Positions 36,322-63,435 of a DNA stretch of 64,000 nt are shown here, piece after piece (position 1 is the stretch's first letter; each line of letters starts with the position of its first letter). Under the pieces are notes generated by a model that searched no databases, was not told the origin of the DNA, and worked only from the letters and a program-made list of their open reading frames with translations. The stretch is from Escherichia phage BAU.Micro_ELP-22. Both the position numbers and the translations under genes were made by a program. The stretch is taken from sequence record OR699282.2. The stretch is one strand, 5' to 3'.

Positions 36322-36585
36322 ATGAATATTCAAGATAGATTACAATTACTGTACACACTTGAACAGGCTGCTTATGATCTTGTTCGAAAAATCTCAGATG
36401 AACTACCTAAAGGAACTAAAGTTCGTGTACGTGAGATGAATTATTTTTCTGGAGTAATTGAAGAACAAGTACTAACAGTGAATAAAGTAACATACTATGA
36501 ATCTGAGTTGTCTATTCAGTGTGAATCTGATGATGGATTAATATCATATTATGGAACTGATGTAGATATAGAGGTAATAAAATGA
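36322..36585 (+). CDS. hypothetical protein, small paralog family 3
   Basis: ATG 36322 preferred over track start 36277; core DELPKGTKVRVREMNYFSGVI. Confidence 0.5.
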   Translation: MNIQDRLQLLYTLEQAAYDLVRKISDELPKGTKVRVREMNYFSGVIEEQVLTVNKVTYYESELSIQCESDDGLISYYGTDVDIEVIK

Positions 36586-37724
36586 CCCTTTTGCAAATAT
36601 ATGAAGATTTAATGCACTTATGTAATACAAACGATGCATTCTTTTATGTGGATCATAAAAGTCCTGCTGGTGGCACGTATCGTGTATTCAGTTATCGTCT
36701 AGCATCATACACTGATTTCATGCAACCAAATGCGTTGGAAACCCGTGGCTCTATGTGGGAAATTGATGAAGAAGGTGAAATGATACGTTGTGCAGCACGT
36801 ACAATGAAAAAGTTCTTCAATGCTTACGAGAATCCTGCTACAATGTTCCCTGCTAACACCACATGCGATGACATTGCGGTAGTGATGCCTAAGTTGGATG
36901 GTTCGATTATCAGTACTTACCGTGATAATGATGGTGAGATTCGTTGTAAATCACATACTGCATTGTATTCTGACCATGCGATTAACAGTACTCGACTTAT
37001 TAACGAGAACCAGAATTTGTATCAGTACATCGACGAAGCGGAACGTTTAGGTTACACAGTTAATATGGAGTATACAAGCCCAGAGTACCGAATTGTATTA
37101 CCATATCAGGTAGAACAACTGTTTGTACTGAACGTTCGTCATCGTGTGAGTGGTGAGTTGCTATGTGGTAAAGCACTACGTGATAAGTTTCCATGTCTTG
37201 CACAGTACAGTACTAATATGACTGGAAAAGATATTCATCACACTTTTCCGGTACGAAATACCTTCCGTGAAAGCGTGGAGGAAGTTCATAAAATGCTTGA
37301 TATTGAGGGTTTTGTGTGCATCCTAAATAATGGGACAATGTGTAAAATAAAGACTGACTGGTACAGTTCATTACATCTTACAAAAGATAGTATTATTATT
37401 GATTCTCATTTATATGAAGCAGTATTAAATGGTTCAAGTGATGATTTAAAACAATTGTTCAGTACTGATGAATATGCTATGCAAAAGATATTAAGAATGG
37501 AACAATTGGTATTTTCGTGCTATAATGCATTACAAGATGAAGTAGAAAGCTTCGTCAAGGAACACAAGCACTTGGAGCGAAAGGAATTCGCAATGAAGGT
37601 TCAGGAGTGTTTAACTAATGAACTGAATCGTCAGGGCTTGGCCTTTGCAATGTATAACAATAAGAAAGTTGATTACAAAGAGACTCTTATAAAATACATG
37701 AAAATTGTACTAAAGGATTTTTAG
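36582..37724 (+). CDS. rnlA: RNA ligase 1
   Basis: 380-aa ORF aligning from memory with T4 RnlA: FFYVDHKSPAGGTYRVFSYRLASY...ALETRGSMWEIDEEGE...KKFFNAYENP and nucleotidyl-transfer lysine motif KLDGS. Confidence 0.85.
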   Translation: MTLLQIYEDLMHLCNTNDAFFYVDHKSPAGGTYRVFSYRLASYTDFMQPNALETRGSMWEIDEEGEMIRCAARTMKKFFNAYENPATMFPANTTCDDIAVVMPKLDGSIISTYRDNDGEIRCKSHTALYSDHAINSTRLINENQNLYQYIDEAERLGYTVNMEYTSPEYRIVLPYQVEQLFVLNVRHRVSGELLCGKALRDKFPCLAQYSTNMTGKDIHHTFPVRNTFRESVEEVHKMLDIEGFVCILNNGTMCKIKTDWYSSLHLTKDSIIIDSHLYEAVLNGSSDDLKQLFSTDEYAMQKILRMEQLVFSCYNALQDEVESFVKEHKHLERKEFAMKVQECLTNELNRQGLAFAMYNNKKVDYKETLIKYMKIVLKDF

Positions 37725-38547: not shown

Positions 38548-39480
38548 ATGCCAACTATCACACTAACAGTTGGATTGCCTGGGTGTGGTAAAACTACATG
38601 GGCAGTGCAAGAGATTAAAAACGCCAAATCCAAGACTATCAACATCAACCGTGATGATATTCGTGAATCTATGGCTGGGTCACATGATGCTTACAAATTC
38701 AACGATGCTAATGAGAAGTACGTAACTAATTTACAGTTCAGTGCAGCAAATTCAGCAGCAGAGAATGGTTGGAACATCATCATATCCGATACGAACCTTA
38801 AACAACATTTCCGTAATCTATGGAAAGTATGGGCTAAAGATAATGGCTATGATTACAAAGAAAAGAACTTCTATGATGATTTTGTACCTAATGAAGACCG
38901 TGGTGCAGATGTTCATGAATTCTTTAAGATTAAAGAGTTCGTAAAACTTTGCAAGAAATATAATCTCCAGCGTGAGCGTTCAGTACAAGATAATATCATT
39001 GACACTATGGCAGATACGTACTATTATAGTAAAGCATTGCACATTGGTTACTATGGTAATTCACGAGAAGCTGCTATTATCGTTGATATCGACGGTACTC
39101 TTGCTCATAAATGGGGTCGTAATCCTTACGATGAAAGTACTGTTCTTCAGGATACACCTGATGAAGAAGTTATTTTGTCTATTATCGCTGAAGCAGTTTT
39201 TCATAAACGCAAGATTATCGTCATGAGTGGGCGTACTGAAGGGTGTCGTGCTGATACCGAACAGTGGCTTAAGAATTGGGGTGTTCCTTACGATGCATTG
39301 TTTATGCGAGATATCGATGATAAACGTCCTGATGATGTTGTAAAATTCGACCTGTACATGAAAAATGTGGTTGATCATTACGATGTTAAAAAGGTATATG
39401 ATGACCGCGATCAAGTTGTATTCATGTGGCGTAAACTACTTGGGTTGAAAGTTTTCCAAGTGGCTGAAGGAAATTTCTAA
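38548..39480 (+). CDS. pseT: polynucleotide 5'-kinase/3'-phosphatase
   Basis: Walker A P-loop GLPGCGKTTW at N-terminus; HAD-type phosphatase motif VDIDGTLA; tail DDRDQVVFMWRKLLGLKVFQVAEGNF parallels T4 Pnk C-terminus. Confidence 0.85.
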   Translation: MPTITLTVGLPGCGKTTWAVQEIKNAKSKTININRDDIRESMAGSHDAYKFNDANEKYVTNLQFSAANSAAENGWNIIISDTNLKQHFRNLWKVWAKDNGYDYKEKNFYDDFVPNEDRGADVHEFFKIKEFVKLCKKYNLQRERSVQDNIIDTMADTYYYSKALHIGYYGNSREAAIIVDIDGTLAHKWGRNPYDESTVLQDTPDEEVILSIIAEAVFHKRKIIVMSGRTEGCRADTEQWLKNWGVPYDALFMRDIDDKRPDDVVKFDLYMKNVVDHYDVKKVYDDRDQVVFMWRKLLGLKVFQVAEGNF

Positions 39481-42649: not shown

Positions 42650-42900
42650 TGTTCAACACTGACTTATCACATTTGCGATATCTTATGTCTTTGGCTGATG
42701 ATTTTATAAATGATCTGAAGCCAAAATATATTGGTCAAGAAGTACGATTAATAAACTCCAGAGGGTATGGAAAGTATATTATTACTGATATGTATATTAG
42801 TGGTGGTGAATGGCGTTTTAAAATTAATACTTATCTTAAAGATGGTTCTTTTGCTGGAACACAAGTTACTAAACACACTAATATTATATGGTTGGAGTAA
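42649..42900 (+). CDS. hypothetical protein, small paralog family 3
   Basis: 83-aa ORF; core INDLKPKYIGQEVRLINSRGYGKYIITDMY. Confidence 0.55.
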   Translation: MFNTDLSHLRYLMSLADDFINDLKPKYIGQEVRLINSRGYGKYIITDMYISGGEWRFKINTYLKDGSFAGTQVTKHTNIIWLE

Positions 42901-42902
42901 TA

Positions 42903-43646
42903 ATGAAACACTTCTTAGAAGTAACTGTACCTGATGATAAAGATTTATACATTGTAGGTGATTTGCATGGTAATGGTAAACTATGGGATGCTACAGTGAA
43001 AGAATTTGGTATTACACACAATGATTATGTTTTCAGTGTAGGTGATATTATCGACCGTGGAGAACAAAATTCAAAGCTCCTTTTTGAATTTTTGTTCGGA
43101 GAAAATCGTTACATGATTGCGGGTAATCATGAGATGATGTGCGTTGATTCGGAAACACTTCGAGATTGGTATCATTGTTGGATAAGTAATGGTGGTGATA
43201 AATTCCTTGATGAAGTTGGAGGAACAGGCATTCAATTCTTTCGTCAGTACTTAAAGGATCTCCCTATGATTATCCAAATCAATCACCGAGGATTGAAGAT
43301 TGGGTTAGTTCATGCTGGAGTTCCGTTGGAATATACAACATGGGAACGATTTGTTAATGGGACAAAATCACTTAGTGCTGATATAATTGATAAGTGCTTG
43401 TGGGATAGAAAAACATTCGATTATTGTAGAACTAATAATACATATTATGCACCTAAGTTAGATGGAGTGCATTGTGTCTTTAGTGGACATACAGCAGTTA
43501 CAGACCCACTCATTTACGGTAATCGCATTTGGATTGATAGTCAGTTCTTGACGGGTGACTTAACTCTCGCTACTCCACAAAGTGGTGGGATGAGATATTT
43601 ACGTAAAGAAAAAGATGAGTACTCATTCAATCGTTTCAAAAGGTAA
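42903..43646 (+). CDS. Ser/Thr protein phosphatase (PPP-family metallophosphoesterase)
   Basis: Motifs GDLHGN, GDIIDRGE, GNHEMM in canonical order; ATG 42903 with GGAG RBS preferred over track start 42888. Confidence 0.75.
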   Translation: MKHFLEVTVPDDKDLYIVGDLHGNGKLWDATVKEFGITHNDYVFSVGDIIDRGEQNSKLLFEFLFGENRYMIAGNHEMMCVDSETLRDWYHCWISNGGDKFLDEVGGTGIQFFRQYLKDLPMIIQINHRGLKIGLVHAGVPLEYTTWERFVNGTKSLSADIIDKCLWDRKTFDYCRTNNTYYAPKLDGVHCVFSGHTAVTDPLIYGNRIWIDSQFLTGDLTLATPQSGGMRYLRKEKDEYSFNRFKR

Positions 43647-43651
43647 TAATT

Positions 43652-43921
43652 ATGCATGATGTAGTTAAAAAATATTTGAATGATAGATATATTATGAAAA
43701 AATCTATTAATTCTATCCTAAAAGACCATGCAAATCAAATACGTGAGATTCTATCAAATAAACTTATTGGTTGTTCAGTTGAGTTCAACTACAAAAAGAA
43801 TGTCGTGAAGGTTGGAGTTATTAAACGTGTAGTTGCTGTTTATGACCAAGATGTATATGTTGAAATAGAATATGATGATAAATTATCACAATTAAGTACT
43901 GAAGATTTAACATTTTTATAA
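43652..43921 (+). CDS. hypothetical protein, small paralog family 3
   Basis: 89-aa ORF; core LSNKLIGCSVEFNYKKNVVKVGVI. Confidence 0.55.
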   Translation: MHDVVKKYLNDRYIMKKSINSILKDHANQIREILSNKLIGCSVEFNYKKNVVKVGVIKRVVAVYDQDVYVEIEYDDKLSQLSTEDLTFL

Positions 43922-43931
43922 GGAAATAGAA

Positions 43932-44159
43932 ATGAAAGTAATTCAAGTTATGGTAGAAAAATACCAAACTGAAGATGGTCGTATTTTTGATTCAGCTAAA
44001 CAAGCTGAACACCATGAACGTATTATTTCTGGTGCACGTAAAGTATGTCCTACATGTAATGGAACACAACAAGTACCGTCAGAAGATTACCGCAGCTTTT
44101 ATGCTTGTCCACACTGTGATGGTAAAGGGTTTTTAGAAAAACAAGAGGTATGGAAATGA
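43932..44159 (+). CDS. small zinc-ribbon protein
   Basis: 75 aa; CPTCNG ... CPHCDG (two CxxC pairs, DnaJ-like zinc finger spacing). Confidence 0.5.
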   Translation: MKVIQVMVEKYQTEDGRIFDSAKQAEHHERIISGARKVCPTCNGTQQVPSEDYRSFYACPHCDGKGFLEKQEVWK

Positions 44160-44569
44160 AATTGTATTGCTTAACTAATATGTACTGTCAAGGTGTCCAA
44201 GCTGGCATTCAAGCATTCCATGCTGGTGTTAAACTAATTAAAGAGTATGAAGGTTCTGCTTTCAGTACTATTATTGATGAATGGTACTATGAACACGAAA
44301 CTATTGTAGTACTAAATGCTGGTGGACATGATAAGTTAAATTCTTATTATAACAACCTTAGCAAACAGGGAAAAGTTCCGTTTGCCAAATTCAATGAAGC
44401 TGGATTGAATGATGCTATTACCTGTGTAGCAGTACTGTGTACGTCTGAAATGATTGAAGACATGGCTGTTATGCGTATGAATCTTCCTGCTGGTGATCAA
44501 CTAATGCAAGTAAAATATGGTGCATTGTTTGACACATTAAAAGCAATCAGCACAATGAGGACAATTTGA
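44150..44569 (+). CDS. hypothetical protein
   Basis: 139-aa ORF. Confidence 0.5.
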   Translation: MEMKLYCLTNMYCQGVQAGIQAFHAGVKLIKEYEGSAFSTIIDEWYYEHETIVVLNAGGHDKLNSYYNNLSKQGKVPFAKFNEAGLNDAITCVAVLCTSEMIEDMAVMRMNLPAGDQLMQVKYGALFDTLKAISTMRTI

Positions 44570-45768
44570 TGGATTTTCCAGAGAAGTTATTTGTTGCACG
44601 TTCCTATGTAAACCACAACCAAGTTGATGGTTTTATTATCGATGCAACAAAATCACATACAAAAGCGTTTGAAACAAAGAAAGAGAGAGCAGAGTACTGG
44701 GCAAAGAAGAACAATCTTCCATCGTTATATATTGACAACGTTCCAACTACGGGATTTTGTGTAGTTGATAAATTAACAACTCATGCACGAGAAACATATT
44801 TCACGATCCGTCACCCAGAAGGATTTGAATTTATGATTAGTGCAAAAAACATGAATGATTTAATTATCAATAACGATATAATCAAAGGTGTTTTTGTAGA
44901 CCCAATGTTTTTCAACAATAACTTAGAATTAATTAATGGTAAAACAAAAACGTTTGCTAAGTTAGTTGAAAAAGAAAATAAAAAAGAACAACAAAAAGAA
45001 ACTGTAGCAGGTCTTAAAGTTGGTGATGGTTTCACTTATCTTAAAGAAGATTACTATTACTGCGGTAAAGTACATGCAATTTGTATAAAGAAAACTAAAG
45101 AATTTGCATATCCAGACAAAAGTTCAGTTTATCATTTACTTTTTAACAGTACTCGTGGAACTTATGCATTGAATCAACGTTTGGATAATTACAATCTTGA
45201 ACCTCGTGCACTCTTGAATAAGAAGACTACAGCAGATGAAGAAATTAAACTTGCTAATGAATTTTGGCAAAGCTATAGAACAAACAGACATAACCCATTA
45301 GGTGAATCTAACATTCCAGTACTGGTACACAATAAATCATTTAAAGCAAAAGACCTTAAAATTAAATACGAAGAAATAAATGTTGATGATCTTATGAATA
45401 ATGGACGTTTCAACGAGAACGTACCATTTATGACTAAAGATAATGAACAAACATATCGCGTATTTTTTGGTGTAAGTAATAATACAACGCGTAGTTATTA
45501 TGGGCGTAGTGGAGATTATAATATCCATTATAATGATAAATTTGAACGCTTTAGTGCATATCCAGTTCAAATTGATGATAATGGGATTATGGTAATGGAT
45601 GTTGATATTAATGAACACTCATCATTTAGTACATGGAATGGCTATCGTTCCCCATTCTTCCCACCAAATGAACGCAAAACATCAAGCACTCGTTACTACC
45701 AAGACAAACCATGTCACGTTCAACTATCAATTAGTAATCCACTTTATATTGGAAAGTATTATCTATAA
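44566..45768 (+). CDS. hypothetical protein
   Basis: 400-aa ORF, lysine-rich central segment; no recognisable motif. Confidence 0.6.
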   Translation: MMDFPEKLFVARSYVNHNQVDGFIIDATKSHTKAFETKKERAEYWAKKNNLPSLYIDNVPTTGFCVVDKLTTHARETYFTIRHPEGFEFMISAKNMNDLIINNDIIKGVFVDPMFFNNNLELINGKTKTFAKLVEKENKKEQQKETVAGLKVGDGFTYLKEDYYYCGKVHAICIKKTKEFAYPDKSSVYHLLFNSTRGTYALNQRLDNYNLEPRALLNKKTTADEEIKLANEFWQSYRTNRHNPLGESNIPVLVHNKSFKAKDLKIKYEEINVDDLMNNGRFNENVPFMTKDNEQTYRVFFGVSNNTTRSYYGRSGDYNIHYNDKFERFSAYPVQIDDNGIMVMDVDINEHSSFSTWNGYRSPFFPPNERKTSSTRYYQDKPCHVQLSISNPLYIGKYYL

Positions 45769-45779
45769 AGGAATATACA

Positions 45780-47198
45780 ATGAGCATTTTAGCAATTCTT
45801 GAAAGCATTAAAAATACTAGCAGTACTCTGGGCAAAAAGGCTATTCTTGAACAAAATAAAGATAATGTAACTTTACAAAAAGTACTGAAATATACACTAG
45901 ACCCTTCTATCGTAAGTGGCTATAAGAAGCTCCCTGACGCTGATGACGTATATCAACATATGACGTTAGATGAAGCAATTGATAAGCTAGAATGCATTTA
46001 CAAGCGTGATGTGACAGGAAATGCGGGGCGTGATTTCATTGCTTCAGTACTGGGTTCTGTATCAGAAGATGACCAAGAAGTTCTTCGTAAAATGCTCACG
46101 AAGAACCTTGATTGTGGTATTCAAGAAAAGAACTGCAATGATGTATTTGGTAAAGGATTCATCAAAGACGAACCATATATGCGTTGTTCTTTGATTGACA
46201 AAAAGACTGCAAAGAACATCAACTTCAAAGATTATGGTTACGCTATATCAGAAGTGAAAATGGATGGTCAGTACTTGAACCACGTTGTCATTAATGGTTC
46301 ATTAACTTCTACATCCCGTAATGGTAAACTATACGACTTCCTGGGTTGTCGTGATGGTGAGATGGCAGGTCTTGCTCACATCATCCAAAGTAAAGATGAA
46401 CGTTTTAGTAGTGGTGTGGTCTTTATGGGGGAAGGTGTAGTACTGGACAATGATGGAGAAACCATTCTCCCACGCACTACTGGCAACGGTATAATTCAGA
46501 AAGCTGGTAAAGATAGCATCAGTCAGAATGAAGCAATGCGTACTGTATTCGTTCTATGGGATGTTGTTCCATATGATGCATTTTGTGAAGGTGTATGGGA
46601 TGTAAAACGTAAAGAACGTCGCGAGATCTTAGTAGATGCAATTAACGAACTCAATAGTGATTTTGTTCGTATGGTTGGATTCCGTAAAGTTCTAAACATC
46701 AAAGAAGCATTTGAGTACAATAGTGAACTAATGAACGAAGGTGAAGAGGGTTCAGTACTGAAATGCGAAGATGGTATCTGGAAATCTCACACTTCTCCTA
46801 AGCAGTTGAAAATGAAACTTAAGATGCAATTGGATTTGCGTATTGTTGGTTTCAATGAAGGTGAAGGGAAGCGTAAAGGTAGCCTTGGTTCTTTACAACT
46901 GGAAAGTGCATGTGGCACATTGAAAGTTAATGTAGGTACAGGCATCCGTGAAAAAGATGCCGAATGGACGTTTAAAACCATTTGGGAAAGAATGCAAGAA
47001 CTTATTGGTAAAGTGGTTACAGTTGAGTGTAATGACATTGTATTCGAGAAGCGTACTGGTGAGCCATCACTGTTCTTACCAGTGTTTATTGAATTTAGAT
47101 TTGACAAAAACACTTGTGACGACTATACTCGTATTTTAGAAATTCGTGATAGTGCTGTTGAGGTGTTCTCAAACAGTATCATTGAATCACTTGGCTAA
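45780..47198 (+). CDS. ATP-dependent DNA ligase (T4 gp30-like)
   Basis: N-term ILAILESIKNTSSTLGKKAILEQNKDN parallels T4 ligase ILKILNEIASIGSTKQKQAILEKNKDN; adenylation lysine motif EVKMDGQ; LKMKLKMQLDLRIVGF near C-terminus. Confidence 0.85.
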   Translation: MSILAILESIKNTSSTLGKKAILEQNKDNVTLQKVLKYTLDPSIVSGYKKLPDADDVYQHMTLDEAIDKLECIYKRDVTGNAGRDFIASVLGSVSEDDQEVLRKMLTKNLDCGIQEKNCNDVFGKGFIKDEPYMRCSLIDKKTAKNINFKDYGYAISEVKMDGQYLNHVVINGSLTSTSRNGKLYDFLGCRDGEMAGLAHIIQSKDERFSSGVVFMGEGVVLDNDGETILPRTTGNGIIQKAGKDSISQNEAMRTVFVLWDVVPYDAFCEGVWDVKRKERREILVDAINELNSDFVRMVGFRKVLNIKEAFEYNSELMNEGEEGSVLKCEDGIWKSHTSPKQLKMKLKMQLDLRIVGFNEGEGKRKGSLGSLQLESACGTLKVNVGTGIREKDAEWTFKTIWERMQELIGKVVTVECNDIVFEKRTGEPSLFLPVFIEFRFDKNTCDDYTRILEIRDSAVEVFSNSIIESLG

Positions 47199-47217
47199 AC
47201 ACTTATAGGAGGTAATT

Positions 47218-48009
47218 ATGAAATTTGTTGTAACGTCTGACGTACACGGTGGTACTGATTACCTCCATAGTGGTGATTACAGTGATACAGTACTGATTAT
47301 TGCTGGGGATTTTGATGAAGTTAAACGTAGTCGTTATCGTACTGGCATTGAATCCCTGTGTAAACAGTTTAAGAATGTAGTACTGGTTCCTGGCAATCAT
47401 GAATATTATGGTTCCAATATCCACAAAACGCATAAAGTACTGTCCGATATGCAAGATGAGATTCCAAATTTCATCTTTTTGCAAAACAAATTTGTATGGC
47501 TGGATGGAGTACTGCTTGTTGGTAGTACTCTGTGGACAGACTTCGATAAAGGTAATTCTTTGACGAAGTTTGATGCTTGTCAGAAGATGAACGATTACAA
47601 ACATATCCGTCATGGAACAACATCAGAGCCTTGGCGTAAGAAACTGACACCAGATGATACTGAGTTTATGCATCACAAAGATAAACAATTTATCAAAAAT
47701 TCTATTGACACAGTTCGCTTTATGCATGATAATGATTTCAAGGTCATCGTGGTTACCCATCACGCACCAAGTTATCAAAGTGTTTCACCAAAATATAAAA
47801 ATGATTCACTGAATGGTTGTTACTGTTCCGATATGGATCAGTACATTGAAGATTTGGGTGCTGATGTTTGGATTCATGGTCATGTTCATAGTAGCTTTGA
47901 CTACCACATTGGTAAGACACGTATCATTTGTAATCCACGAGGCTATGAATCATACAGTGGAGCTTGTGAGAATTTTGATTACAATCCTAAATTTGTATTT
48001 GAAATTTAA
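47218..48009 (+). CDS. calcineurin-like metallophosphoesterase
   Basis: Motifs VVTSDVHGG, IIAGDFDE, VPGNHEYYG, VVTHHAP, WIHGHVHSS. Confidence 0.75.
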   Translation: MKFVVTSDVHGGTDYLHSGDYSDTVLIIAGDFDEVKRSRYRTGIESLCKQFKNVVLVPGNHEYYGSNIHKTHKVLSDMQDEIPNFIFLQNKFVWLDGVLLVGSTLWTDFDKGNSLTKFDACQKMNDYKHIRHGTTSEPWRKKLTPDDTEFMHHKDKQFIKNSIDTVRFMHDNDFKVIVVTHHAPSYQSVSPKYKNDSLNGCYCSDMDQYIEDLGADVWIHGHVHSSFDYHIGKTRIICNPRGYESYSGACENFDYNPKFVFEI

Positions 48010-51033: not shown

Positions 51034-51529
51034 TACTAATATCTGGTTAGATAACATAATCAAGACATTAGAATTAATTAAACTTACATTACAAAAAACT
51101 ACTGATATTGAAATTAAAATTAAACAAGAAATATTAAACTATTATCATAGAAACAAATATAGCACGTTTATCTCTAAATTAATTTATGGATTATATGATA
51201 TTGAAGATATTTGCATCGGTTACAGTACTGGTATTTGCTTCACAGTTAATGGTTTAAAAAATGATTTAAATTTCAGACTTTCCGATGAAGAGCAAGATTT
51301 TCGTAGATTTTGTGATAATATTATGGATACAGATAAAATTACATTTGTTATTGAATTAAATCAAACGTGGTCTACATATGCAGATAAACCATTTGAAATT
51401 AATGAAACAGATGTGTTAAACTATATTCGAGTTATGAAAATTCATGATTTGTGTAAAAACGCATTGTTAAGTATTGGAGCTTATAATGAAACATACGACT
51501 TGGTTGAAGATAGCAGAAGTAGTTGCTGA
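51005..51529 (+). CDS. hypothetical protein
   Basis: 174-aa ORF. Confidence 0.5.
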   Translation: MKYTHLSIDDTNIWLDNIIKTLELIKLTLQKTTDIEIKIKQEILNYYHRNKYSTFISKLIYGLYDIEDICIGYSTGICFTVNGLKNDLNFRLSDEEQDFRRFCDNIMDTDKITFVIELNQTWSTYADKPFEINETDVLNYIRVMKIHDLCKNALLSIGAYNETYDLVEDSRSSC

Positions 51530-51965
51530 GGAAAGTAAATGTATTTCACAAAAAGTTGGTTGTGTTATTGTTAAAAATAACCGAGTATTGAGTACTGGAT
51601 ACAATGGTACTCCATCAAAACAACCAAATTGTTGTGATGTGAATCAACACTTAGTCAATGATGGACGTTTTCAAGACTGGGTTAGTGATGAAGCAAAGCA
51701 TGAACATCATGAGTGGAGTAATATTCATGAAATCCATGCTGAAATGAACGCTTTACTCTATAGTTCTCCTGCTGAACGTCAAGGTGCTACTCTTTACACA
51801 ACACTACAACCATGTTATACTTGTTCTAAGTTGATCGCAGGTAGTGGGATTTCACGTGTAATTTATCTCAAAAATTATCCTCGTACACCACCAGAAGCTA
51901 TTAAAGTACTGGAAGATGCTGGAATTATTGTTAATTGCATTTATGATAAGGGTCTTGATAAATGA
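51486..51965 (+). CDS. cd: deoxycytidylate (dCMP) deaminase
   Basis: ESKCISQKVGCVIVKNNRVLSTGYNGTP, zinc ligand motifs HAEMNAL and PCYTCSKLI; closely parallels T4 Cd; ATG 51486 with GGAG RBS. Confidence 0.85.
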   Translation: MKHTTWLKIAEVVAEESKCISQKVGCVIVKNNRVLSTGYNGTPSKQPNCCDVNQHLVNDGRFQDWVSDEAKHEHHEWSNIHEIHAEMNALLYSSPAERQGATLYTTLQPCYTCSKLIAGSGISRVIYLKNYPRTPPEAIKVLEDAGIIVNCIYDKGLDK

Positions 51966-52724: not shown

Positions 52725-52850
52725 CTGTTATAAACTGTACACCTTAAGTTTTATTTTTAAAAATTTGAGTTAAGTACAGAAAAAGTTTGACTTAAGTGTT
52801 TAAGTACTATATTATTTATATCTTCCTAAACAAAATTGAGGACTTGTTAT

Positions 52851-53459
52851 ATGAAAAGACTATGGCTTGAAGTGATACAAGCAGCGATGTTTCTATTGTT
52901 AATAAATTTTCCAGCCAGTGCTGGTATTGAAAGTAAAAATGTGATAAAGTATAATCCTGAAACCCGAAATGTATATTTCATATCAGATATTACAGATGGG
53001 TCGCTCAAGAGAATGATAGAGTTGTATGATAAAGAACACTATGATACCATCACAATTACATCTCCTGGTGGTGATTTTGATGCAGGTATTCGAATGGCAA
53101 ACTTTGTTAGAGACAATGGGATAAATTTAATTGTTTCTAGGTATTGCAATTCAGCATGTACTGTGGTATTCTTTAGTGTATCTCCCGAAAAGCGATATAT
53201 GACAAATCGCTCAGTACTGGGTCTTCATAACATTTCGATTAAAAGTAATGTTACTGATGGTGATAATTCATTTGTGTCTGTAAGACAGTTATCAACTTTT
53301 ACCGAAGAAATGGCAACAAAGGTAGGTTTCCTTTTTTCACTATATGCAGCAAATGGAATCCCACCAGAAGTACTATTTAGAGTTAGTCGTTCTCGTGGTG
53401 AAGATGTTGTAATATTAACAAAACCAGAACTGGTTTTTTACGGTTCAGTCAAACAATAA
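52851..53459 (+). CDS. secreted ClpP/S49-fold serine peptidase-like protein
   Basis: Signal peptide MKRLWLEVIQAAMFLLLINFPASAG; ITSPGGDFDAGIRMANFV and CNSACTVVFF resemble the ClpP SPGG and active-site Ser segments. Confidence 0.5.
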   Translation: MKRLWLEVIQAAMFLLLINFPASAGIESKNVIKYNPETRNVYFISDITDGSLKRMIELYDKEHYDTITITSPGGDFDAGIRMANFVRDNGINLIVSRYCNSACTVVFFSVSPEKRYMTNRSVLGLHNISIKSNVTDGDNSFVSVRQLSTFTEEMATKVGFLFSLYAANGIPPEVLFRVSRSRGEDVVILTKPELVFYGSVKQ

Positions 53460-53529
53460 AAATAATTAAAATAACAGGATGATTATGATGTACTTCCTTT
53501 GTTATTAATTATATTGAGATTATATAACT

Positions 53530-53790
53530 ATGACAAACATCCAAAACTTGACATCTATTATTTTTTATGCTACTGTAGTAATGTATGCTACAGTTATTTT
53601 TCTAACAGTTTTCATTTACAAAGATTATCGTAATGGCTTTATTGATCCAACTACAATGAAGTTCAATTCAAAATTCGAAGCAATAATTTATTATGTACTA
53701 TCAACTTCATACTTGGTGTGCCTAATGTTGTTAGGAGCACTAATTTATATCTTATACACAACATTATTTGCAATTGGAGCTATTTTATGA
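53530..53790 (+). CDS. small membrane protein
   Basis: 86 aa, two to three hydrophobic segments. Confidence 0.5.
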   Translation: MTNIQNLTSIIFYATVVMYATVIFLTVFIYKDYRNGFIDPTTMKFNSKFEAIIYYVLSTSYLVCLMLLGALIYILYTTLFAIGAIL

Positions 53791-54380
53791 CCTGTATTAT
53801 TGCACACACTGACGGAGTAAGTTCTTTTATTGCTGGGGATAAGTTAGGAAGCAATGGATTTACAAAAACTGTTCAAACTGAGCCAAAGGTATTCGAGAAA
53901 GAATTTATCAAGTTACATGATGATGGACTAACTAGAACTAAAGAAGTAATGGCATTGGGTTATACTACATCATTTCGTATGGGTCAGTTGTTAAATTATA
54001 ACCTTAATTTACCTGAACAAGATGCTAGTCAAACATTTTCACAATATTTGGTTCTTAAAGTTATTCCAATTATTCGTCAAATGTTTAAAGAAGAATGGGG
54101 TGCACGAGATGCATCACAAGATGTAGGTGGTGGACAATTTATCATTCTCCACAATCATACAATCTATGAAGTTCAAGAAGACTTTTCAGTACTACAACCT
54201 AAAACAAGAATTACCGCAGTAGGTAGTGGGACATATCATGCAATTGCAGCAATGCAAGCATATATTGAAGTTGAGAACGAATCTAAAAAACCACTACACG
54301 AACGTATCAAATCAATTTTTAAAATTGTTAGTGATAATGTAACAAGCGTAAGCGAAGAGTTTGATGTTTTAAAATATTAA
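53787..54380 (+). CDS. HslV/proteasome beta-like Ntn hydrolase
   Basis: ATG 53787 (ATGA overlap) gives M-TCIIAHTDGVSSFIAGDKLG resembling the HslV N-terminus TTIVSVRRNGHVVIAGDGQ with Thr nucleophile; ITAVGSGTYHAIAAM matches LIAIGSGGPYAQAAA. Confidence 0.6.
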   Translation: MTCIIAHTDGVSSFIAGDKLGSNGFTKTVQTEPKVFEKEFIKLHDDGLTRTKEVMALGYTTSFRMGQLLNYNLNLPEQDASQTFSQYLVLKVIPIIRQMFKEEWGARDASQDVGGGQFIILHNHTIYEVQEDFSVLQPKTRITAVGSGTYHAIAAMQAYIEVENESKKPLHERIKSIFKIVSDNVTSVSEEFDVLKY

Positions 54381-54407
54381 AAGTACTAATATTATAAGAG
54401 AGAATAG

Positions 54408-54602
54408 ATGATGGCATACACAATTTATGAATGGGTTTTGAGTTTTTTTATAGTTTTTTCTATTGTTGTAATTTATAACAATGCTAAATGCTTATATAGG
54501 GACTTGAAATCCAATGGTTATCACAAAGATAATAATTTTATGTATGCCTATCATATTGGAATCATTCTGTTATTATCAATATATTTAATTGTTTTTTTAT
54601 AA
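54408..54602 (+). CDS. small membrane protein
   Basis: 64 aa, two hydrophobic segments. Confidence 0.45.
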   Translation: MMAYTIYEWVLSFFIVFSIVVIYNNAKCLYRDLKSNGYHKDNNFMYAYHIGIILLLSIYLIVFL

Positions 54603-54611
54603 GGATTGAAT

Positions 54612-55364
54612 ATGATATCAGAAAAATTTATAAGCAATGAAGGTAAAAAGCGATTACTGATTATATCAGGTGCAGGACTTTCTGTTGAAAGTGGTATGGA
54701 ACCTTTTCGATTTGATGATGGTTTGTGGGATACATTTAAAATTAATGATGTATGTAACATTGCTAGTTTAACTACAAAATATCATGTTGTTCATTCTTTC
54801 TATAATACATTACGTGTAAAATTGGGACAATGCGAACCCAATGCAATGCATTATTTTATAAAATCGTTAGAAGATCAATATGGTGATTGCTTCCTTCATA
54901 TGACTTCTAACATGGATGATCTTTATACTCGTATCGGTGGTCATGAGCTTAAACTTCATGGAAACTTGTGCGAAGTTATTGAAAATTATAGTATCAATTC
55001 TGATGATTATAATGTTATTAACTGCGGATACGAACCATACATACCAAAACATGATGTTTTTGCTAAACCAAATGTAGTAATGATTGGAGAATATCATCGT
55101 TATGTTGATGGTATTCGCTTACCAATTTACGAAGAACGAAATAATGTGTTGAAATCTCTTAATGAAAATGATACAGTTATTGTAATTGGTAGTAGCGATA
55201 CAGTACTGGTGTGGTCGAGATTAGCAGCAGCATTGCCATGTTATAGTGTTAATGTTAACATTCGTAAAAATGATAATGATTTTTTGTTTAATGAAAAAGT
55301 TATCAAGCCAGCAACCAAAGCAATACCTCAACTAGAGACTATAATTAAGGAACGTATGAAATGA
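54612..55364 (+). CDS. Sir2-family NAD-dependent deacylase/ADP-ribosyltransferase-like protein
   Basis: LLIISGAGLSVESGMEPFRFDDGLW (NAD-binding GAGxSxxSGIxxFR), catalytic-His context ELKLHGN, VIVIGSSDTV; ATG 54612 with AAGGA RBS. Confidence 0.65.
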   Translation: MISEKFISNEGKKRLLIISGAGLSVESGMEPFRFDDGLWDTFKINDVCNIASLTTKYHVVHSFYNTLRVKLGQCEPNAMHYFIKSLEDQYGDCFLHMTSNMDDLYTRIGGHELKLHGNLCEVIENYSINSDDYNVINCGYEPYIPKHDVFAKPNVVMIGEYHRYVDGIRLPIYEERNNVLKSLNENDTVIVIGSSDTVLVWSRLAAALPCYSVNVNIRKNDNDFLFNEKVIKPATKAIPQLETIIKERMK

Positions 55365-55912
55365 GTGTTAAAGAAGTTCCCTTTGGTGAATATGGCACAC
55401 GTGCAAATTTTGTATTTTGCTATTTCTTTGCAAGAAAATGCAACCCTTACGAAAACTATGAGTTAAATGATATACCAGAAGTAAATCTGGTATTACTACA
55501 ATTACGATGGGATGGTCTTCTTGGTGGATGTGGTGGAACCGTAGAAAGTACTGATATCTCACTAGAAGATGCGTTGCGTCGTGAAGTTCAAGAAGAAATG
55601 GATTACAATATTTTTGTTTCCCATCTTCGACCACTCAAAACTTTTGAAATTTACCCAGGTGCAAACAGTCATAGTTTTAGCTATGAAGTGAGCTATGACG
55701 AGTTGAAACACATTAGAGATGGATACACTAATGCTAAACATGCAAGTGCAGAAGTGGCTGGTGTAAATTTATGTCATATTTCTCGTTATTCTAAGGGACA
55801 AAATCGAGAAGCGGGATATAATAATCTTATGACACAGAACTTCATCGGTACAGCAAAACAAGAATTGGAGTATCTGGTTCAAAAAGAAAACTTACTAATT
55901 AGTTATCTATAG
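55361..55912 (+). CDS. putative Nudix hydrolase (divergent Nudix box)
   Basis: GGCGGTVESTDISLEDALRREVQEEMDY resembles Gx5Ex7REUxEExGU but with a longer E-to-RE spacer. Confidence 0.45.
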   Translation: MSVKEVPFGEYGTRANFVFCYFFARKCNPYENYELNDIPEVNLVLLQLRWDGLLGGCGGTVESTDISLEDALRREVQEEMDYNIFVSHLRPLKTFEIYPGANSHSFSYEVSYDELKHIRDGYTNAKHASAEVAGVNLCHISRYSKGQNREAGYNNLMTQNFIGTAKQELEYLVQKENLLISYL

Positions 55913-55921
55913 GAGTTTAAC

Positions 55922-56242
55922 ATGTCTTACTCAATGTTTTTGGATGATATTCGTGATGCAAATCTATATTATCCAAACCAAGATATGGTGGTATGTCGTG
56001 ACTTTAAAAGTGCATGTGAATATGTTATTGAAAATGGAATTCCAGCATTTGTATCATTCGACCATGACTTGGGTGATGTGAGCGAAGACGAAAAGACTGG
56101 ATATTCTTTTGCTAAGTTTCTTATTGATTATATGTTTGATAATAATATTAAAGAACCGTTTGAGTACTTTGTTCACAGTAGTAATCCTGTTGGTAAAATT
56201 AATATTGAAACATACTTAAACAATGGATTTAACGCATTATGA
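55922..56242 (+). CDS. hypothetical protein
   Basis: 106-aa ORF with GGAG RBS. Confidence 0.55.
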   Translation: MSYSMFLDDIRDANLYYPNQDMVVCRDFKSACEYVIENGIPAFVSFDHDLGDVSEDEKTGYSFAKFLIDYMFDNNIKEPFEYFVHSSNPVGKINIETYLNNGFNAL

Positions 56243-56541
56243 TTCAAACACACATCAAAAGTCTTATTTGTACTGTTCTGTTAGGTGCAGGAGTTCTTTG
56301 GTTCGGACAGTATCACGAGAACACTAAGCGTACCAACATTCACTACAATACCGCAGAAGTTGTTAGTTTAGGACAATGTAGCGAGTCCAAATGTTCATTT
56401 ATGTATAAAACCCAAAATGGTGAAGTACGTAATGGACTATCAAGAGAACCAGTTTCAATTGGTCAACTTGTTTACCAGGAGTGCTGGGAAGAAAAGGTTC
56501 GAGGTTCACGTTGCTATGTTGAATACGAACCAAATATGTAA
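56239..56541 (+). CDS. hypothetical membrane-anchored protein
   Basis: 100 aa; N-terminal hydrophobic segment LICTVLLGAGVLWF. Confidence 0.5.
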   Translation: MIQTHIKSLICTVLLGAGVLWFGQYHENTKRTNIHYNTAEVVSLGQCSESKCSFMYKTQNGEVRNGLSREPVSIGQLVYQECWEEKVRGSRCYVEYEPNM

Positions 56542-56601
56542 TAATCCGAGTCAATAACATTAGTCGAGTACAAGGATGTACTCATAACTCAAGGATGTTT
56601 T

Positions 56602-58041
56602 ATGAAAAAATATACAATTGACACAAACGTACTACTATCTGACCCTAATGCATCTATTGCTTTTGATGGTGCTGCAATCATTCTACCATTTACAGTACTG
56701 GAAGAATTGGATTCAATTAAGAGTCGTAATGTAGATGTTTCACGCGATGCTCGTGTTGCTATTCGTAACATTGAAGCAATTATTGCAGATGCATCACATG
56801 ATGAGATTAGTAGTACTGGTGTTAATATTGCTGATGTTCATACCAATATGAATCCTGATAGCAAATTGTTTGTTATTACAAACGAAGAAGCTGAAGCACT
56901 AATTCGTACTAAAGGTTCAGAAGAGAAAGTTCAAACCCTTCTCAAAAGCACAGTACCTGATGATAAAATCATTCTGGTAGCTTTAGCAACAGAATCAGTA
57001 CTGGTAACTCGTGATATCAACATGCGTATCAAAGCACTAAGTTATGGTGTCGAGGTACAAGATTATCGCCATGATATTGTTATTGGTGATAGTGATTTGA
57101 TTCACATTGGTCAACACCATTTGGAAATTAATTTTTGGGAAGTATATAGCAACTTAACCAATACTAATATTCAATCCGAACAAGTTGGTCGTCGTTTGTA
57201 TCATTACATTTCTAAAAGCTTGATTGAACATTTGCTTCCACAAAATCTATGCATCGGTGATTATCTATATGATGATGCAGACGTATTATTTGTGTACGAA
57301 GGTCAATCAGCAATTGAGGAAGATGATGGAACACTAACACCAGAAGATATTTTGGTATTCCAAGATATTGGACAATCAGTAGCTTTACGTGCTAAAGTAT
57401 GGGATATTAAAGCAAAGAATATCCAACAAGCACTCGCCATCAACAGTATTCTCGATCCTGATGTACATCTAACAGTACTGCTAGGTTCTGCTGGTACTGG
57501 TAAAACACTAATTACGATTGCTACTGCATTAGAATTAGTACTGGAAAAACGTAAATACGACCGAATCATCTTCTCTAAAACTCAAGACTCACAGTTTGAA
57601 GATATTGGTTTCTTGCCAGGTTCAGAAGCAGAAAAAGTGATTCCATTCTGTGGAGCCGCAATTGACGCGTTAGAGTTTCTTCATAAAGATGATGCTAACC
57701 CACAAGGTAGTATTGAAGAGATTATGAAACGTAATGTTATTCAATTTAAAGCACTAAACTTTGTACGTGGACGTTCATTCACCAACACTATTCTAGTAGT
57801 TGATGAATTCCAAAACATTACACCTGCACAAGCCAAAACAATCTTGACACGAGCAGGATTAAACTGTAAAGTAGTAATTATGGGTAACTTGAGTCAGATT
57901 GACAGTAAGTTTATTAGTCCTGTTAACAGTGGTTTGACATATGTAACTGAGAAGTTTAAAGATTGGGCAGGTTGTCGTGTCATCGAACTAGAAGGTGTTG
58001 TTCGTTCACCACTTGCAGAATTTGCTGAAGAAAATATGTAA
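56602..58041 (+). CDS. phoH: PIN-domain / PhoH-like ATPase fusion protein
   Basis: N-terminal PIN-like YTIDTNVLLSDP...LEELD; C-terminal Walker A LLGSAGTGKTLITIA and Walker B-like ILVVDEFQN. Confidence 0.75.
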   Translation: MKKYTIDTNVLLSDPNASIAFDGAAIILPFTVLEELDSIKSRNVDVSRDARVAIRNIEAIIADASHDEISSTGVNIADVHTNMNPDSKLFVITNEEAEALIRTKGSEEKVQTLLKSTVPDDKIILVALATESVLVTRDINMRIKALSYGVEVQDYRHDIVIGDSDLIHIGQHHLEINFWEVYSNLTNTNIQSEQVGRRLYHYISKSLIEHLLPQNLCIGDYLYDDADVLFVYEGQSAIEEDDGTLTPEDILVFQDIGQSVALRAKVWDIKAKNIQQALAINSILDPDVHLTVLLGSAGTGKTLITIATALELVLEKRKYDRIIFSKTQDSQFEDIGFLPGSEAEKVIPFCGAAIDALEFLHKDDANPQGSIEEIMKRNVIQFKALNFVRGRSFTNTILVVDEFQNITPAQAKTILTRAGLNCKVVIMGNLSQIDSKFISPVNSGLTYVTEKFKDWAGCRVIELEGVVRSPLAEFAEENM

Positions 58042-58045
58042 TATT

Positions 58046-58078
58046 GTATGGGACATAATGTCCCATACATGATATAAT
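58046..58078 (+). promoter_or_regulatory. perfect palindrome overlapping extended -10 promoter
   Basis: GTATGGGACAT-a-ATGTCCCATAC (58046-58068), then TGaTATAAT (-10 hexamer 58073-58078); GGGACA sits at the -35 position. Confidence 0.5.
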
Positions 58079-58109
58079 GTTGTTATCATAATACAGAAGG
58101 AGATATAAA

Positions 58110-58401: not shown

Positions 58402-58429
58402 ATCCCTGTCTTTTGGCAGGGATTTTTTA
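58402..58429 (+). terminator. rho-independent terminator
   Basis: ATCCCTG-tcttttgg-CAGGGAT hairpin followed by TTTTTT. Confidence 0.7.
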
Positions 58430-60293: not shown

Positions 60294-61265
60294 ATGAAAA
60301 CTAAAATTATTTCTGAACAAAAAATTGGCAATACTACAGTACTGAATCTTGAAGTTCAAGGTCTTAGTAATGTTCGTTCTCTTACGGTTTGTACTCAGAG
60401 AGATGATTTGACTGATTTCTATAGCTCAGAATACATGTCAGAAGAACCTTGGGATATGGGATGGTTGGACGGTAGTAGTTATATCAGTTCACGTTATAGT
60501 TTTGGTTCTCATGAAAATATTGAACAATTAAAAAATGAGTATATTAAACTCAGTGATACTATTGAAATGAAAGAAGAAGATTGTGTAGAACTTTTCATTT
60601 TTGAATTCGATGCCGGAAATGGTAATTCATTACTAGTAAGTAATATTGAAGAACATTTAATGTATCATGAAATTGAAGATGTAGATTTTGAAAGTATTAA
60701 AAATGTTGTTCATATGGTTGGTGGTAGTATTACTGATGATTCAGATATCGGTCATAATATTTCACTTTGCTTAATTTCTCATCCAAAAACTCGTGGTTTT
60801 AAAGTTCCACAAGATGAAACTTACGTGTCTGAAACTGCTGATGAAGGAATTTATCCTTGGAATGATTATGTAGAATACTATGGTCATTTCTGTTCTGATA
60901 CAAAAGAACTGAAAAAAGGCGAACAATATTTTGATATGTTCCGTGCTGCACAGCGTTTAGTACTGAATAATACTGAACTATTTCCTGATCGCGGCGAAGA
61001 AAATATGATTGATATTATCTTCAAGAACTATGATTATGTACAGAACATTCCTGATAATGTACATTTGGAATATGTTCACGGTTCTTCAAACAAATTCTAT
61101 AATATTGAATTGAATGCTCCAGTGTGTGAAGTAATTATTGAGTACGGTGCTATTGGTAAAACCAGTACTACTGATGGTGAAGAATTCGAAACTATTGAAG
61201 AAGCACGTAAGTTCTTCGAGAAGAAAGTAATTTCCAAAATTAAAAGTGGTTATAGCCCAAAATGA
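60294..61265 (+). CDS. hypothetical protein with C-terminal WGR-like domain
   Basis: C-terminal ~80 aa (YVHGSSNKFYNIELNAPVCEVIIEYGAIGKTSTTDGEEFETIEEARKFFEKKV) resembles the WGR domain of PARP-type proteins. Confidence 0.45.
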   Translation: MKTKIISEQKIGNTTVLNLEVQGLSNVRSLTVCTQRDDLTDFYSSEYMSEEPWDMGWLDGSSYISSRYSFGSHENIEQLKNEYIKLSDTIEMKEEDCVELFIFEFDAGNGNSLLVSNIEEHLMYHEIEDVDFESIKNVVHMVGGSITDDSDIGHNISLCLISHPKTRGFKVPQDETYVSETADEGIYPWNDYVEYYGHFCSDTKELKKGEQYFDMFRAAQRLVLNNTELFPDRGEENMIDIIFKNYDYVQNIPDNVHLEYVHGSSNKFYNIELNAPVCEVIIEYGAIGKTSTTDGEEFETIEEARKFFEKKVISKIKSGYSPK

Positions 61266-62455: not shown

Positions 62456-63070
62456 ATGACTACATCGGAAAAGTACTGGTGGATTTTGGCTCATCCCAAA
62501 TTCATAAACAAAGATATGGTTCCAGCTAGGATTGATATAGAACCTCATGATGTGTGTCCAATGACAAATCGAATTGAAGATTTCAAAGCATTGAATACAA
62601 AGACTCAATTTTGGGTAGAATTTCTTTCACCAATGTATATTGAGCAAGACGACGAATGGGTACAAGCACATGATTATCAATTGGATTGTGGTGGTGATAC
62701 GTATGAAGAGGCGATTGAAAAATTATACAAAAATGTGCTAAACACATATGGTAATTACACCCAACAAGAAGCAGATAACACATTTAATAAGATCCATGCA
62801 TTCAAATCTACTCCATCAATTTTTAATCCCACTAAAACTGTTTGGGAGGAACGACACAGTTGGAGTTCATGTGTAATCGATGAAGAAACCAAAGAAAAAA
62901 TCATCGATGATATAAAAAATTTAAAAAATACGATAGAAGCCTTGCGTGAATTCATAATGTCTTGTACAATAGAACAACAGAAAGAGGCAAAGATACATTT
63001 GGAGAGTGAAGAATGTAAACTTTGGGTTCTAGAGAAATCTATTGAAAAGGGTATAGACTTAGACTTATGA
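62456..63070 (+). CDS. hypothetical protein
   Basis: ATG 62456 with GGAG RBS preferred over track start 62444. Confidence 0.5.
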   Translation: MTTSEKYWWILAHPKFINKDMVPARIDIEPHDVCPMTNRIEDFKALNTKTQFWVEFLSPMYIEQDDEWVQAHDYQLDCGGDTYEEAIEKLYKNVLNTYGNYTQQEADNTFNKIHAFKSTPSIFNPTKTVWEERHSWSSCVIDEETKEKIIDDIKNLKNTIEALREFIMSCTIEQQKEAKIHLESEECKLWVLEKSIEKGIDLDL

Positions 63071-63435
63071 ATAGTAAATTGGAGAAACTAATCGAAGAAT
63101 TACGCCAGATGCCACCTATTGAACAAGTAGGAAATTACAAACGGTATCGTGTTATTGCTCGTGCACTTGATAAAAAAGGTAGAGTACTGGCAACTCGCAC
63201 AAATTCTTATACACAGACTCACCCAGTACAGAAGGGTTTCGCCATTCGTGCTGGGCGACCGCAAGGTGAGTTTCTTCATGCTGAAATTTCATGTTTACTG
63301 GCTGCTCGTACTGATGTTCATACTTTACTGATTGCACGGATAAGTAAAGATGGAATTCCTGTTCCGGCTAAACCATGTGAAATTTGCTCATTAGCAATAA
63401 AAGAATATGGGGTGAAAGAGATTATCCACACATGA
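63067..63435 (+). CDS. small CDA-fold zinc-dependent deaminase-like protein
   Basis: Zinc-ligand signature HAE (FLHAEISCLLAA) and PCxxC (PAKPCEICSLAI) with spacing typical of the cytidine/dCMP deaminase fold; 122 aa. Confidence 0.55.
   Translation: MNSKLEKLIEELRQMPPIEQVGNYKRYRVIARALDKKGRVLATRTNSYTQTHPVQKGFAIRAGRPQGEFLHAEISCLLAARTDVHTLLIARISKDGIPVPAKPCEICSLAIKEYGVKEIIHT

Follow-up and report, generated by a model that had tools for sequence, protein, structure and literature searches.

To what use does a bacteriophage put an enzyme that spends nicotinamide adenine dinucleotide (NAD+), and why is its gene joined so closely to that of a Nudix hydrolase? The question is raised by positions 54612 to 55912 of a 64,000-nucleotide (nt) stretch of Escherichia phage BAU.Micro_ELP-22 (record OR699282.2; this whole stretch is called the window below), where a Sir2-family (sirtuin) gene overlaps a Nudix gene. 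A sequence-only reading of the window had added two distant genes to this pair, a presumed nicotinamide mononucleotide adenylyltransferase (NMNAT) and a WGR-domain protein, and had seen in the four an NAD/ADP-ribose toolkit that could serve counter-defense or host metabolism. We found that the pair is the front of a block of five genes encoding, in this order, the sirtuin, a NUDT16-like Nudix hydrolase, a cyclic-phosphate processing receiver (cREC) domain protein, a small cysteine-rich protein, and a PIN-PhoH protein. The last three members of this tightly packed block do not figure in the earlier reading. We put at roughly 40% the probability that the sirtuin, Nudix, cREC, and PIN-PhoH proteins form a system for repairing or processing RNA ends, as predicted by Iyer, Burroughs, Anantharaman, and Aravind in 2022 (Viruses 14:1977; PMC9503650, section 3.7.3).

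The sirtuin gene probably starts at the ATG proposed from the letters alone, which is preceded by AAGGA 6 nt upstream, with a TTG at 54606 as an alternative. Its product matched the Pfam SIR2 profile (PF02146) with 73.1 bits (E = 3.7e-20, cut-off 24) and no other Pfam family, the PHROG "Sir2" with an E value of 2e-77, and the structures of Escherichia coli CobB (1s5p/6rxj) with an E value of about 1e-22. The sequence contains the motifs GAGLSVESG..PFR and TSNMDD and the catalytic histidine in LHG, including those from which a Sir2-family protein had been recognized. This histidine, on which the assignment had been made to depend, is H116 in the numbering from the ATG, and it was invariant across 27 homologs, as were G20, G22, S27, N100, D102, and D103, while F32 and R33 were each present in 24 of them. 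The AlphaFold model had a predicted local distance difference test (pLDDT) score of 92, and its best fold match was E. coli CobB, with a template modeling (TM) score of 0.77 to 0.86, followed by Sirt5 and Sir2Af.

The protein thus shares its fold, NAD-binding loop, N/D motif, and catalytic histidine with CobB and SIRT5, which are class III deacylases. It differs from them in sequence (28% identity) and in belonging to a clade with invariant motifs of its own (VCNI, GY, and W201) in which the Cys4 zinc site is absent from 26 of the 27 members. The corresponding segment of the small domain comprises 45 residues with zero to two cysteines, and CxxC...CxxC is retained solely by P0050, the most distant member. 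Sirtuins of this zinc-less clade were found in 986 phage records, including T5-like, rV5-like, KVP40-like, and Rak2-like phages. We also considered the SIR2 NADases of bacterial defense systems (ThsA, DSR1/2, SIR2-HerA, and SIR2-APAZ) and rejected them, as PADLOC gave no match at an E value of 1e-3 or below and the protein is CobB-like. By profile and fold, the window sirtuin is a CobB-type enzyme and not a defense-type SIR2 NADase. One member of the family departs from the pattern: the Sir2 protein of Klebsiella phage RaK2 (L008:5264-6001) has GNG and not GAG and is missing the Phe-Arg from its cofactor-binding loop; it retains the catalytic histidine and may be impaired or inactive.

The second gene encodes a Nudix hydrolase of the NUDT16 type. 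It scored 67.7 bits against Pfam Nudt16-like (PF22327, cut-off 27) and 29.8 bits against NUDIX (PF00293, cut-off 21.1), and it matched the structures of X29 and human NUDT16 with E values of 3e-12 to 1e-11. The REVQEE box noticed earlier is part of a Nudix box reading GGTVE..RREVQEE, whose residues G58, G59, E62, R74, E75, E78, and E79 were invariant in five homologs. With X29 and NUDT16 the protein has in common this NUDT16-type box, H104, E131, and a family hidden Markov model (HMM) score above cut-off; unlike them, it is encoded by a bacteriophage, next to cREC or, in relatives, fused with it, and local similarity is about 30%. The Sir2 stop codon and the Nudix start codon share 4 nt (ATGA, 55361 to 55364), and AAGGAA lies 7 nt before the Nudix ATG, which makes the translational coupling proposed for the two genes plausible. 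NUDT16-like Nudix proteins occurred in 74 phage records, almost all Rak2-like; a search with the window protein as single query returned only the 121Q genome. Cleansing of inosine tri- or diphosphate by a NUDT16-like protein, as a response to ATP-deaminating defenses, was considered on the strength of one literature reference and set aside, no contextual support for it having been found.

The tight spacing continues downstream. The gaps between the sirtuin, Nudix, cREC, and cysteine-rich genes are -4, +9, and -4 nt, and GGAG stands ahead of the cREC ATG. The cREC protein matched Pfam cREC_REC (PF20274) with 80.5 bits (E = 1.5e-22, cut-off 27) and has the receiver-type aspartates D8, D9, and D47-H48-D49 as invariant residues. 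Its neighbor, a protein of 100 amino acids (aa) translationally coupled to cREC, matched no family in the libraries scanned, NCBIfam and PADLOC among them; it is 42.9% identical to Serratia phage BF gp114, which occupies the matching position, and its relatives are annotated as membrane proteins. After a gap of 60 nt follows the PIN-PhoH protein, which combines a PIN RNase domain with a PhoH-type P-loop ATPase (Pfam PIN_4, 72 bits; PhoH, 150 bits). A scan of the region from 52 to 58.6 kb returned, downstream of 53594, a single strong terminator-like site on the plus strand, a hairpin at 58402 to 58423, and none between the two positions; this hairpin possibly ends the transcription unit.

The same set of genes recurs beyond the immediate relatives of this phage. 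Region 53500 to 58100 of the window is 99.2 to 99.6% identical to the PBECO4/121Q/JP4 group of E. coli jumbo phages, Rak2-like phages with genomes of about 350 to 370 kb. At greater distance, Serratia phage BF has an orthologous block with the same gene order, with identities of 43.6% for Sir2, 50.7% for Nudix and cREC, and 68% for PIN-PhoH. In BF (L004) and in phage CBB, the Nudix and cREC domains are fused into one protein (Nudt16-like plus cREC_REC). The order is also kept in RaK2 and in a contig of the Logan metagenome (Sir2 47% identical), despite extra genes inserted into the block. Judged by homology and gene order, the five-gene block is conserved across Rak2-like jumbo phages. In contig L093, a BI-1-like membrane protein lies between Nudix and cREC. 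A word-index search for homologs yielded close relatives alone.

This arrangement has been described before. Iyer et al. (PMC9503650) defined a type 1 sirtuin-centered phage neighborhood, with Serratia phage BF (AQW88637.1) as the prototype, and predicted that it repairs RNA at the expense of NAD+, the sirtuin playing the part of KptA (see also PMC7824862); cREC was stated there to be experimentally uncharacterized. Consecutive genes of the window, from 54612 to 58041, follow this type 1 order, sirtuin, Nudix, cREC, and PIN-domain protein, and belong to the same Rak2-like lineage. The window differs from the BF prototype in that Nudix and cREC are separate proteins, in that the linked 2H phosphoesterase was not found, and in that an HslV-like peptidase replaces the upstream Nampt and NMNAT-Nudix genes.

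From family membership and gene context, we infer how such a system could work. The sirtuin would use up NAD+ in a reaction with a macromolecule, from which nicotinamide and a derivative of ADP-ribose would be set free. The substrate would most probably be RNA ends, the sirtuin stripping 2'-phosphates from cleaved RNA in the manner of Tpt1/KptA. The Nudix enzyme would then cleave the pyrophosphate of the ADP-ribose derivative to AMP and a phosphoribosyl product, cREC would hydrolyze the leftover (cyclic) phosphate ester, and PIN-PhoH would be the RNA nuclease/helicase partner. The proposed logic resembles that of the Tpt1/KptA 2'-phosphotransferase pathway, which yields ADP-ribose 1''-2'' cyclic phosphate: NAD+ is spent on an RNA phosphate, a Nudix enzyme together with a cyclic phosphodiesterase processes the by-product, and RNA ligase and polynucleotide kinase (PNK) genes belong to the context. 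There is no homology between the two, however, as the fold of Tpt1 is that of ADP-ribosyltransferases and differs from that of sirtuins, and the phage activity is purely a prediction. That the zinc-less clade as a whole acts on RNA and not on proteins, as an NAD+-dependent 2'-phosphotransferase or an RNA ADP-ribosyltransferase, with the NUDT16-like Nudix clearing the ADP-ribose by-product and cREC representing a novel type of cyclic phosphodiesterase, is a tentative and still doubtful extension.

The strongest contextual argument for a single pathway comes from outside the Rak2-like phages. In the unrelated rV5-like lineage (L133), an Rnl1-like RNA ligase, cREC (PF20274, E = 4.5e-14), Sir2, and a pyrophosphohydrolase follow one another in this order, adjoined by a divergently transcribed PNK-type kinase and a metallophosphoesterase; the pyrophosphohydrolase after Sir2 was called MazG-type by Iyer et al. 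A narrow cREC HMM missed this cREC copy, which Pfam PF20274 picked up. cREC, sirtuin, and pyrophosphatase therefore recur together with a nonhomologous pyrophosphatase. In a megaphage-sized IMG/VR contig of 607 kb (L163:3582-6708), an Rnl1 ligase is located two genes upstream of the sirtuin; the product encoded between this ligase and the sirtuin belongs to the arginase family (PF00491, E = 9e-76). Among 29 cREC groups from non-Rak2 phages, the neighbors were metallophosphoesterases (5 groups), Macro domains (5), PNK-type kinases (4), PNKP-type HAD phosphatases (2), and RNA ligases (2), and neither a sirtuin nor a NUDT16-like Nudix was found within 8 kb. By family assignment, the recurrent cREC neighbors are genes of RNA end healing and sealing and of ADP-ribose processing. 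The window encodes an Rnl1 and a PNKP of its own 16 to 18 kb upstream of the sirtuin, the first members of an end-repair set that also includes two calcineurin-like phosphoesterases, a PTH2-like peptidyl-tRNA hydrolase, and an ATP-dependent DNA ligase. Taken across lineages, this context of cREC, RNA ligase, PNK-type kinase, phosphoesterases, and PIN-PhoH favors RNA repair or the processing of ADP-ribose derivatives over a defense against NAD depletion.

Several points weigh against RNA-end repair. The closest relative of the sirtuin in sequence and fold is the protein deacylase CobB. The isoelectric points of Sir2 (5.8), Nudix (5.1), and cREC (4.2) are all acidic, which typical RNA-end enzymes such as Tpt1 are not, and the T4-type Rnl1/Pnkp pathway encoded in the window is not known to make 2'-phosphate junctions. 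An RNA ligase is neither adjacent to the block in the window nor among the top sirtuin neighbors in 28 groups of phage sirtuins. The NUDT16-like Nudix is tied to Sir2 in Rak2-like phages only, and synteny inside one phage lineage is weak evidence for a functional linkage. Finally, literature searches returned no experimental study of cREC or of a phage sirtuin more recent than the 2022 prediction.

A link to NAD is clearer in the relatives than in the window. The salvage pair of the NARP2 type, Nampt and an NMNAT-Nudix fusion, lies directly upstream of the sirtuin block in RaK2, BF, CBB, and the Logan contig. A Nampt locus was recovered for 13 of the 14 Rak2-like IMG/VR genomes carrying the block, so the NAD link is present at the level of the family, and to this extent the NAD/ADP-ribose theme of the sequence-only reading was reasonable. 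The lone exception is a 121Q-type genome, the lineage of the window. Neither Nampt nor NMNAT-Nudix was found in the 64 kb, where the HslV-like peptidase sits at the place of these genes, and the four-gene toolkit as such does not hold there. PBECO4/121Q-group phages were absent from the Nampt matches listed (down to 38% identity), the whole genome of the present phage not having been scanned directly. In BF and CBB, an Acb1-like 2H phosphodiesterase (PF23474, E = 3.6e-15) is additionally encoded between Nampt and the sirtuin; when the window was searched by tblastn with the BF protein, nothing matched at an E value of 1 or below. This 148-aa BF protein (L004:3507-3953; CBB ortholog, L003:4273-4719), two genes upstream of the sirtuin, is labeled "RNA ligase" and matches the anti-CBASS Acb1 family.

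We then surveyed the neighbors of phage sirtuins in an unbiased manner, using the 28 groups from IMG/VR and a radius of 5 kb. PhoH was found in 9 groups, NrdD in 7, Nampt in 6, NMNAT-Nudix in 5, and metallophosphoesterase in 4, and three of the Nampt groups were non-Rak2 (L138, L140, and L170). The repeated proximity of nicotinamide salvage is expected, because the enzyme releases nicotinamide, and its occurrence in at least four lineages (as Nampt or NMNAT) is an indication of genuine NAD+ turnover by the sirtuin. Salvage adjacency fits every model with a catalytically active sirtuin and therefore does not discriminate among them. As for the known salvage systems, NARP2 (Nampt plus NMNAT-Nudix, as in KVP40 NadV/NatV) is found beside the sirtuin in RaK2, BF, CBB, L093, and L140, while the window and the 121Q-type genome yielded neither NARP2 nor NARP3 (PnuC plus NadR-like). 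Membership of the window in NARP1, NARP2, or NARP3 was thus rejected, as no Nampt, NMNAT-Nudix, or PnuC/NadR-like genes were found in it.

The CobB-like character of the sirtuin would be accounted for if the enzyme were a protein deacylase that remodels host or phage acylation, with the Nudix protein, possibly helped by cREC, destroying O-acyl-ADP-ribose and the Nampt and NMNAT of the relatives recycling nicotinamide. CobB and Sirt5 are protein deacylases, all NAD-binding and catalytic residues as well as the (F/I)GE loop are retained, and the Nudix enzymes Ysa1 and NUDT5 hydrolyze O-acetyl-ADP-ribose. Salvage genes beside the sirtuin in several lineages would fit as well, although recycling of nicotinamide is expected of any NAD-consuming sirtuin. 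We nevertheless regard deacylation as rather unlikely, given that canonical deacylases need the Cys4 zinc site missing from nearly the whole clade and that the company of cREC, RNA ligase, kinase, phosphoesterase, and PIN-PhoH would be left unexplained. The decapping and decay of RNA for host shut-off would give PIN-PhoH a role: the Nudix enzyme would remove NAD- or FAD-type caps or a 5' pyrophosphate, as NudC and RppH do, and feed the RNase/ATPase encoded in the same unit, the sirtuin acting separately. Its closest solved relatives, NUDT16 and X29, are indeed RNA decapping enzymes, and viral Nudix decapping enzymes occur in eukaryotic DNA viruses. Such a division of labor would account neither for the coupling to Sir2 nor for the Nudix::cREC fusion nor for the cREC-Sir2-MazG arrangement of rV5-like phages, and we consider it improbable.

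Counter-defense, a function suggested from the letters alone, would have Nudix and cREC degrade ADP-ribose (ADPr) marks on RNA or ADP-ribose-derived molecules that act as signals or toxins, such as cyclic ADPR variants, ADPr>P, and ADPr-1''P; the block would belong to an anti-defense island that also contains an Acb1-like nuclease and salvage genes of the NARP2 type. Both NAD-type RNA caps and ADP-ribose conjugates are substrates of NUDT16 enzymes, and NARP2 is an established counter to NAD-depleting defenses. It has been described in PMC13464706, and according to a proposal of Iyer et al., soluble ADPr derivatives are what the Nudix, Macro, and cREC domains of phages act against. The island would correspond to what is seen ahead of the block in BF and CBB, where NMNAT-Nudix, Nampt, and the Acb1-like 2H protein are all present, and in RaK2 and L093, which have the salvage pair. 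The window, however, yielded none of these three genes, its lineage is the one without a Nampt locus, no component matches a known anti-defense protein or is tied to a particular defense system, and the additional members proposed, NMNAT and WGR, were not supported. Moreover, the sirtuin, being a consumer of NAD+, cannot by itself relieve NAD depletion and has no obvious part in restoring NAD+; the idea that the module counters such depletion was not borne out. Overall, we judge counter-defense to be unlikely, and RNA-end repair or processing is the reading that we prefer.

The two distant genes did not join the block on closer analysis. Profile searches placed SIR2, NUDIX, and WGR above their cut-offs, as had been anticipated, but not CTP_transf_like, which gave 17.3 bits against a cut-off of 21 for the 177-aa protein taken to be an NMNAT. 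This protein, whose gene lies 25 kb from the sirtuin, does have the HxGH and SSTxxR motifs, with H16, G18, H19, S136, S137, and R141 invariant, and HxGH/SxTxxR is shared by PPAT and other HIGH-family nucleotidyltransferases. The NCBIfam NMNAT model (TIGR00482) matched residues 8 to 28 only, with 20 bits against a cut-off of 112, and neither the protein nor a 13-sequence profile matched a PDB sequence at an E value of 10 or below. In a Foldseek search with the AlphaFold model (pLDDT 88.5), PPAT/CoaD came first (E = 1.8e-6), human NMNAT1 fourth, and NadD seventh, all at 13 to 19% identity. The family consists of stand-alone proteins of about 170 aa that come mostly from cyanophages and are common in T4-like ones; of the 565 phage records recovered by tblastn, 375 were Synechococcus phages. 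Serratia phage BF encodes both an ortholog at 32 kb and a genuine NMNAT-Nudix at 54 kb, so the two are different paralogs, the 177-aa protein being without a Nudix or kinase domain. After searches of Pfam, NCBIfam, PDB, PHROGs, and tblastn and modeling with AlphaFold and Foldseek, we rejected the NMNAT identity in favor of a generic HIGH fold that is PPAT/NMNAT-like. A gene for a Dam-like N6-adenine methyltransferase (28770 to 29291) overlaps the start of the nucleotidyltransferase gene by 4 nt.

The WGR domain of the other protein is real (PF05406, 41.9 bits, cut-off 22) and covers the C-terminal residues 256 to 322. The N-terminal 255 residues matched nothing in Pfam, PHROG, NCBIfam, or PADLOC and contain no PARP catalytic domain. 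The protein was found in 17 phage records only; the sirtuin region of JP4 is 99.6% identical to that of the window, yet this phage has small open reading frames (ORFs) in place of the gene. Lacking a catalytic domain and behaving as an accessory gene, it was rejected as an NAD-linked component. Phage WGR proteins were described by Iyer et al. in 2021 (PMC7824862) as DNA-binding transcription factors.

Table 1. Positions of the sirtuin block and of other features discussed, in window coordinates
Feature	Position	Strand	Basis or remark
CobB-class sirtuin, zinc-less phage clade, 250 aa	54612..55364	+	SIR2 profile, CobB match, fold
NUDT16-like Nudix hydrolase, 183 aa	55361..55912	+	PF22327 and NUDIX profiles, X29/NUDT16 structures
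cREC domain protein, 106 aa	55922..56242	+	PF20274
100-aa protein, N-terminal hydrophobic segment, 5 Cys	56239..56541	+	Start overlaps cREC stop (ATGA)
PIN-PhoH (PIN RNase domain and PhoH-type P-loop ATPase), 479 aa	56602..58041	+	Pfam
Terminator-like hairpin, 9-bp stem, T-run	58402..58423	+	Consensus match only
T4 Rnl1-type RNA ligase	36582-37724	+	RNA/DNA end-repair set, 7 to 18 kb upstream of and on the same strand as the sirtuin
PNKP (kinase and HAD phosphatase)	38548-39480	+	End-repair set
Two calcineurin-like phosphoesterases, PTH2-like peptidyl-tRNA hydrolase, ATP-dependent DNA ligase	42888-43646, 44150-44569, 45780-47198, 47218-48009	+	End-repair set (42888-48009)
HIGH-motif nucleotidyltransferase, 177 aa	29288-29821	+	HxGH and SSTxxR motifs, fold
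WGR-domain protein, variable accessory gene	60294-61265		PF05406

The window has a GC content of about 32%, and its plus strand carries almost all genes. Positions 1 to 28000 form an unbroken same-strand run of about 60 ORFs, mostly of 100 to 190 aa, all of which are hypothetical in the JP4 annotation. The same annotation has two dCMP/cytidine-deaminase-like genes less than 12 kb apart (51474 to 51965 and 63067 to 63435), and an HAE...PCxxC zinc motif is visible in the product of the latter. Directly upstream of the sirtuin are genes for a ClpP/NfeD-like protease (52836 to 53459) and the HslV-like peptidase (53718 to 54380), in the place taken by NMNAT-Nudix and Nampt in RaK2, BF, and CBB; in RaK2, the order is protease followed by the salvage genes. 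No Rfam family was detected between 50 and 64 kb and no tRNA gene in the window, and a promoter scan returned 43 sites against a shuffled expectation of 36 ± 6.6, that is, no excess.

The locus itself is not new: the sirtuin, Nudix, and neighboring genes are annotated in the GenBank records of near-identical phages, and both the neighborhood and its predicted function have been published. An RNA-directed sirtuin has likewise been predicted in print, so that the new step would be its proof; the value that remains is in the biochemistry of the sirtuin block and in a lineage that has retained this block although no phage genes for NAD salvage were detected in it. Phages and bacteria contend over NAD+ as a central resource, and a phage enzyme that spends it, usually beside salvage genes, needs explaining; the 121Q/PBECO4 lineage offers a natural contrast in this respect. 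Sirtuins of this clade are encoded by close to a thousand phages with known sequences, among them well-studied types and types of therapeutic use (T5-like, rV5-like, and Rak2-like). If the prediction is true, the block would be part of the first sirtuin pathway directed at nucleic acids, and if the sirtuin works on RNA ends, it would represent a new class of RNA-repair enzymes and would show how phages survive defenses that cleave RNA.

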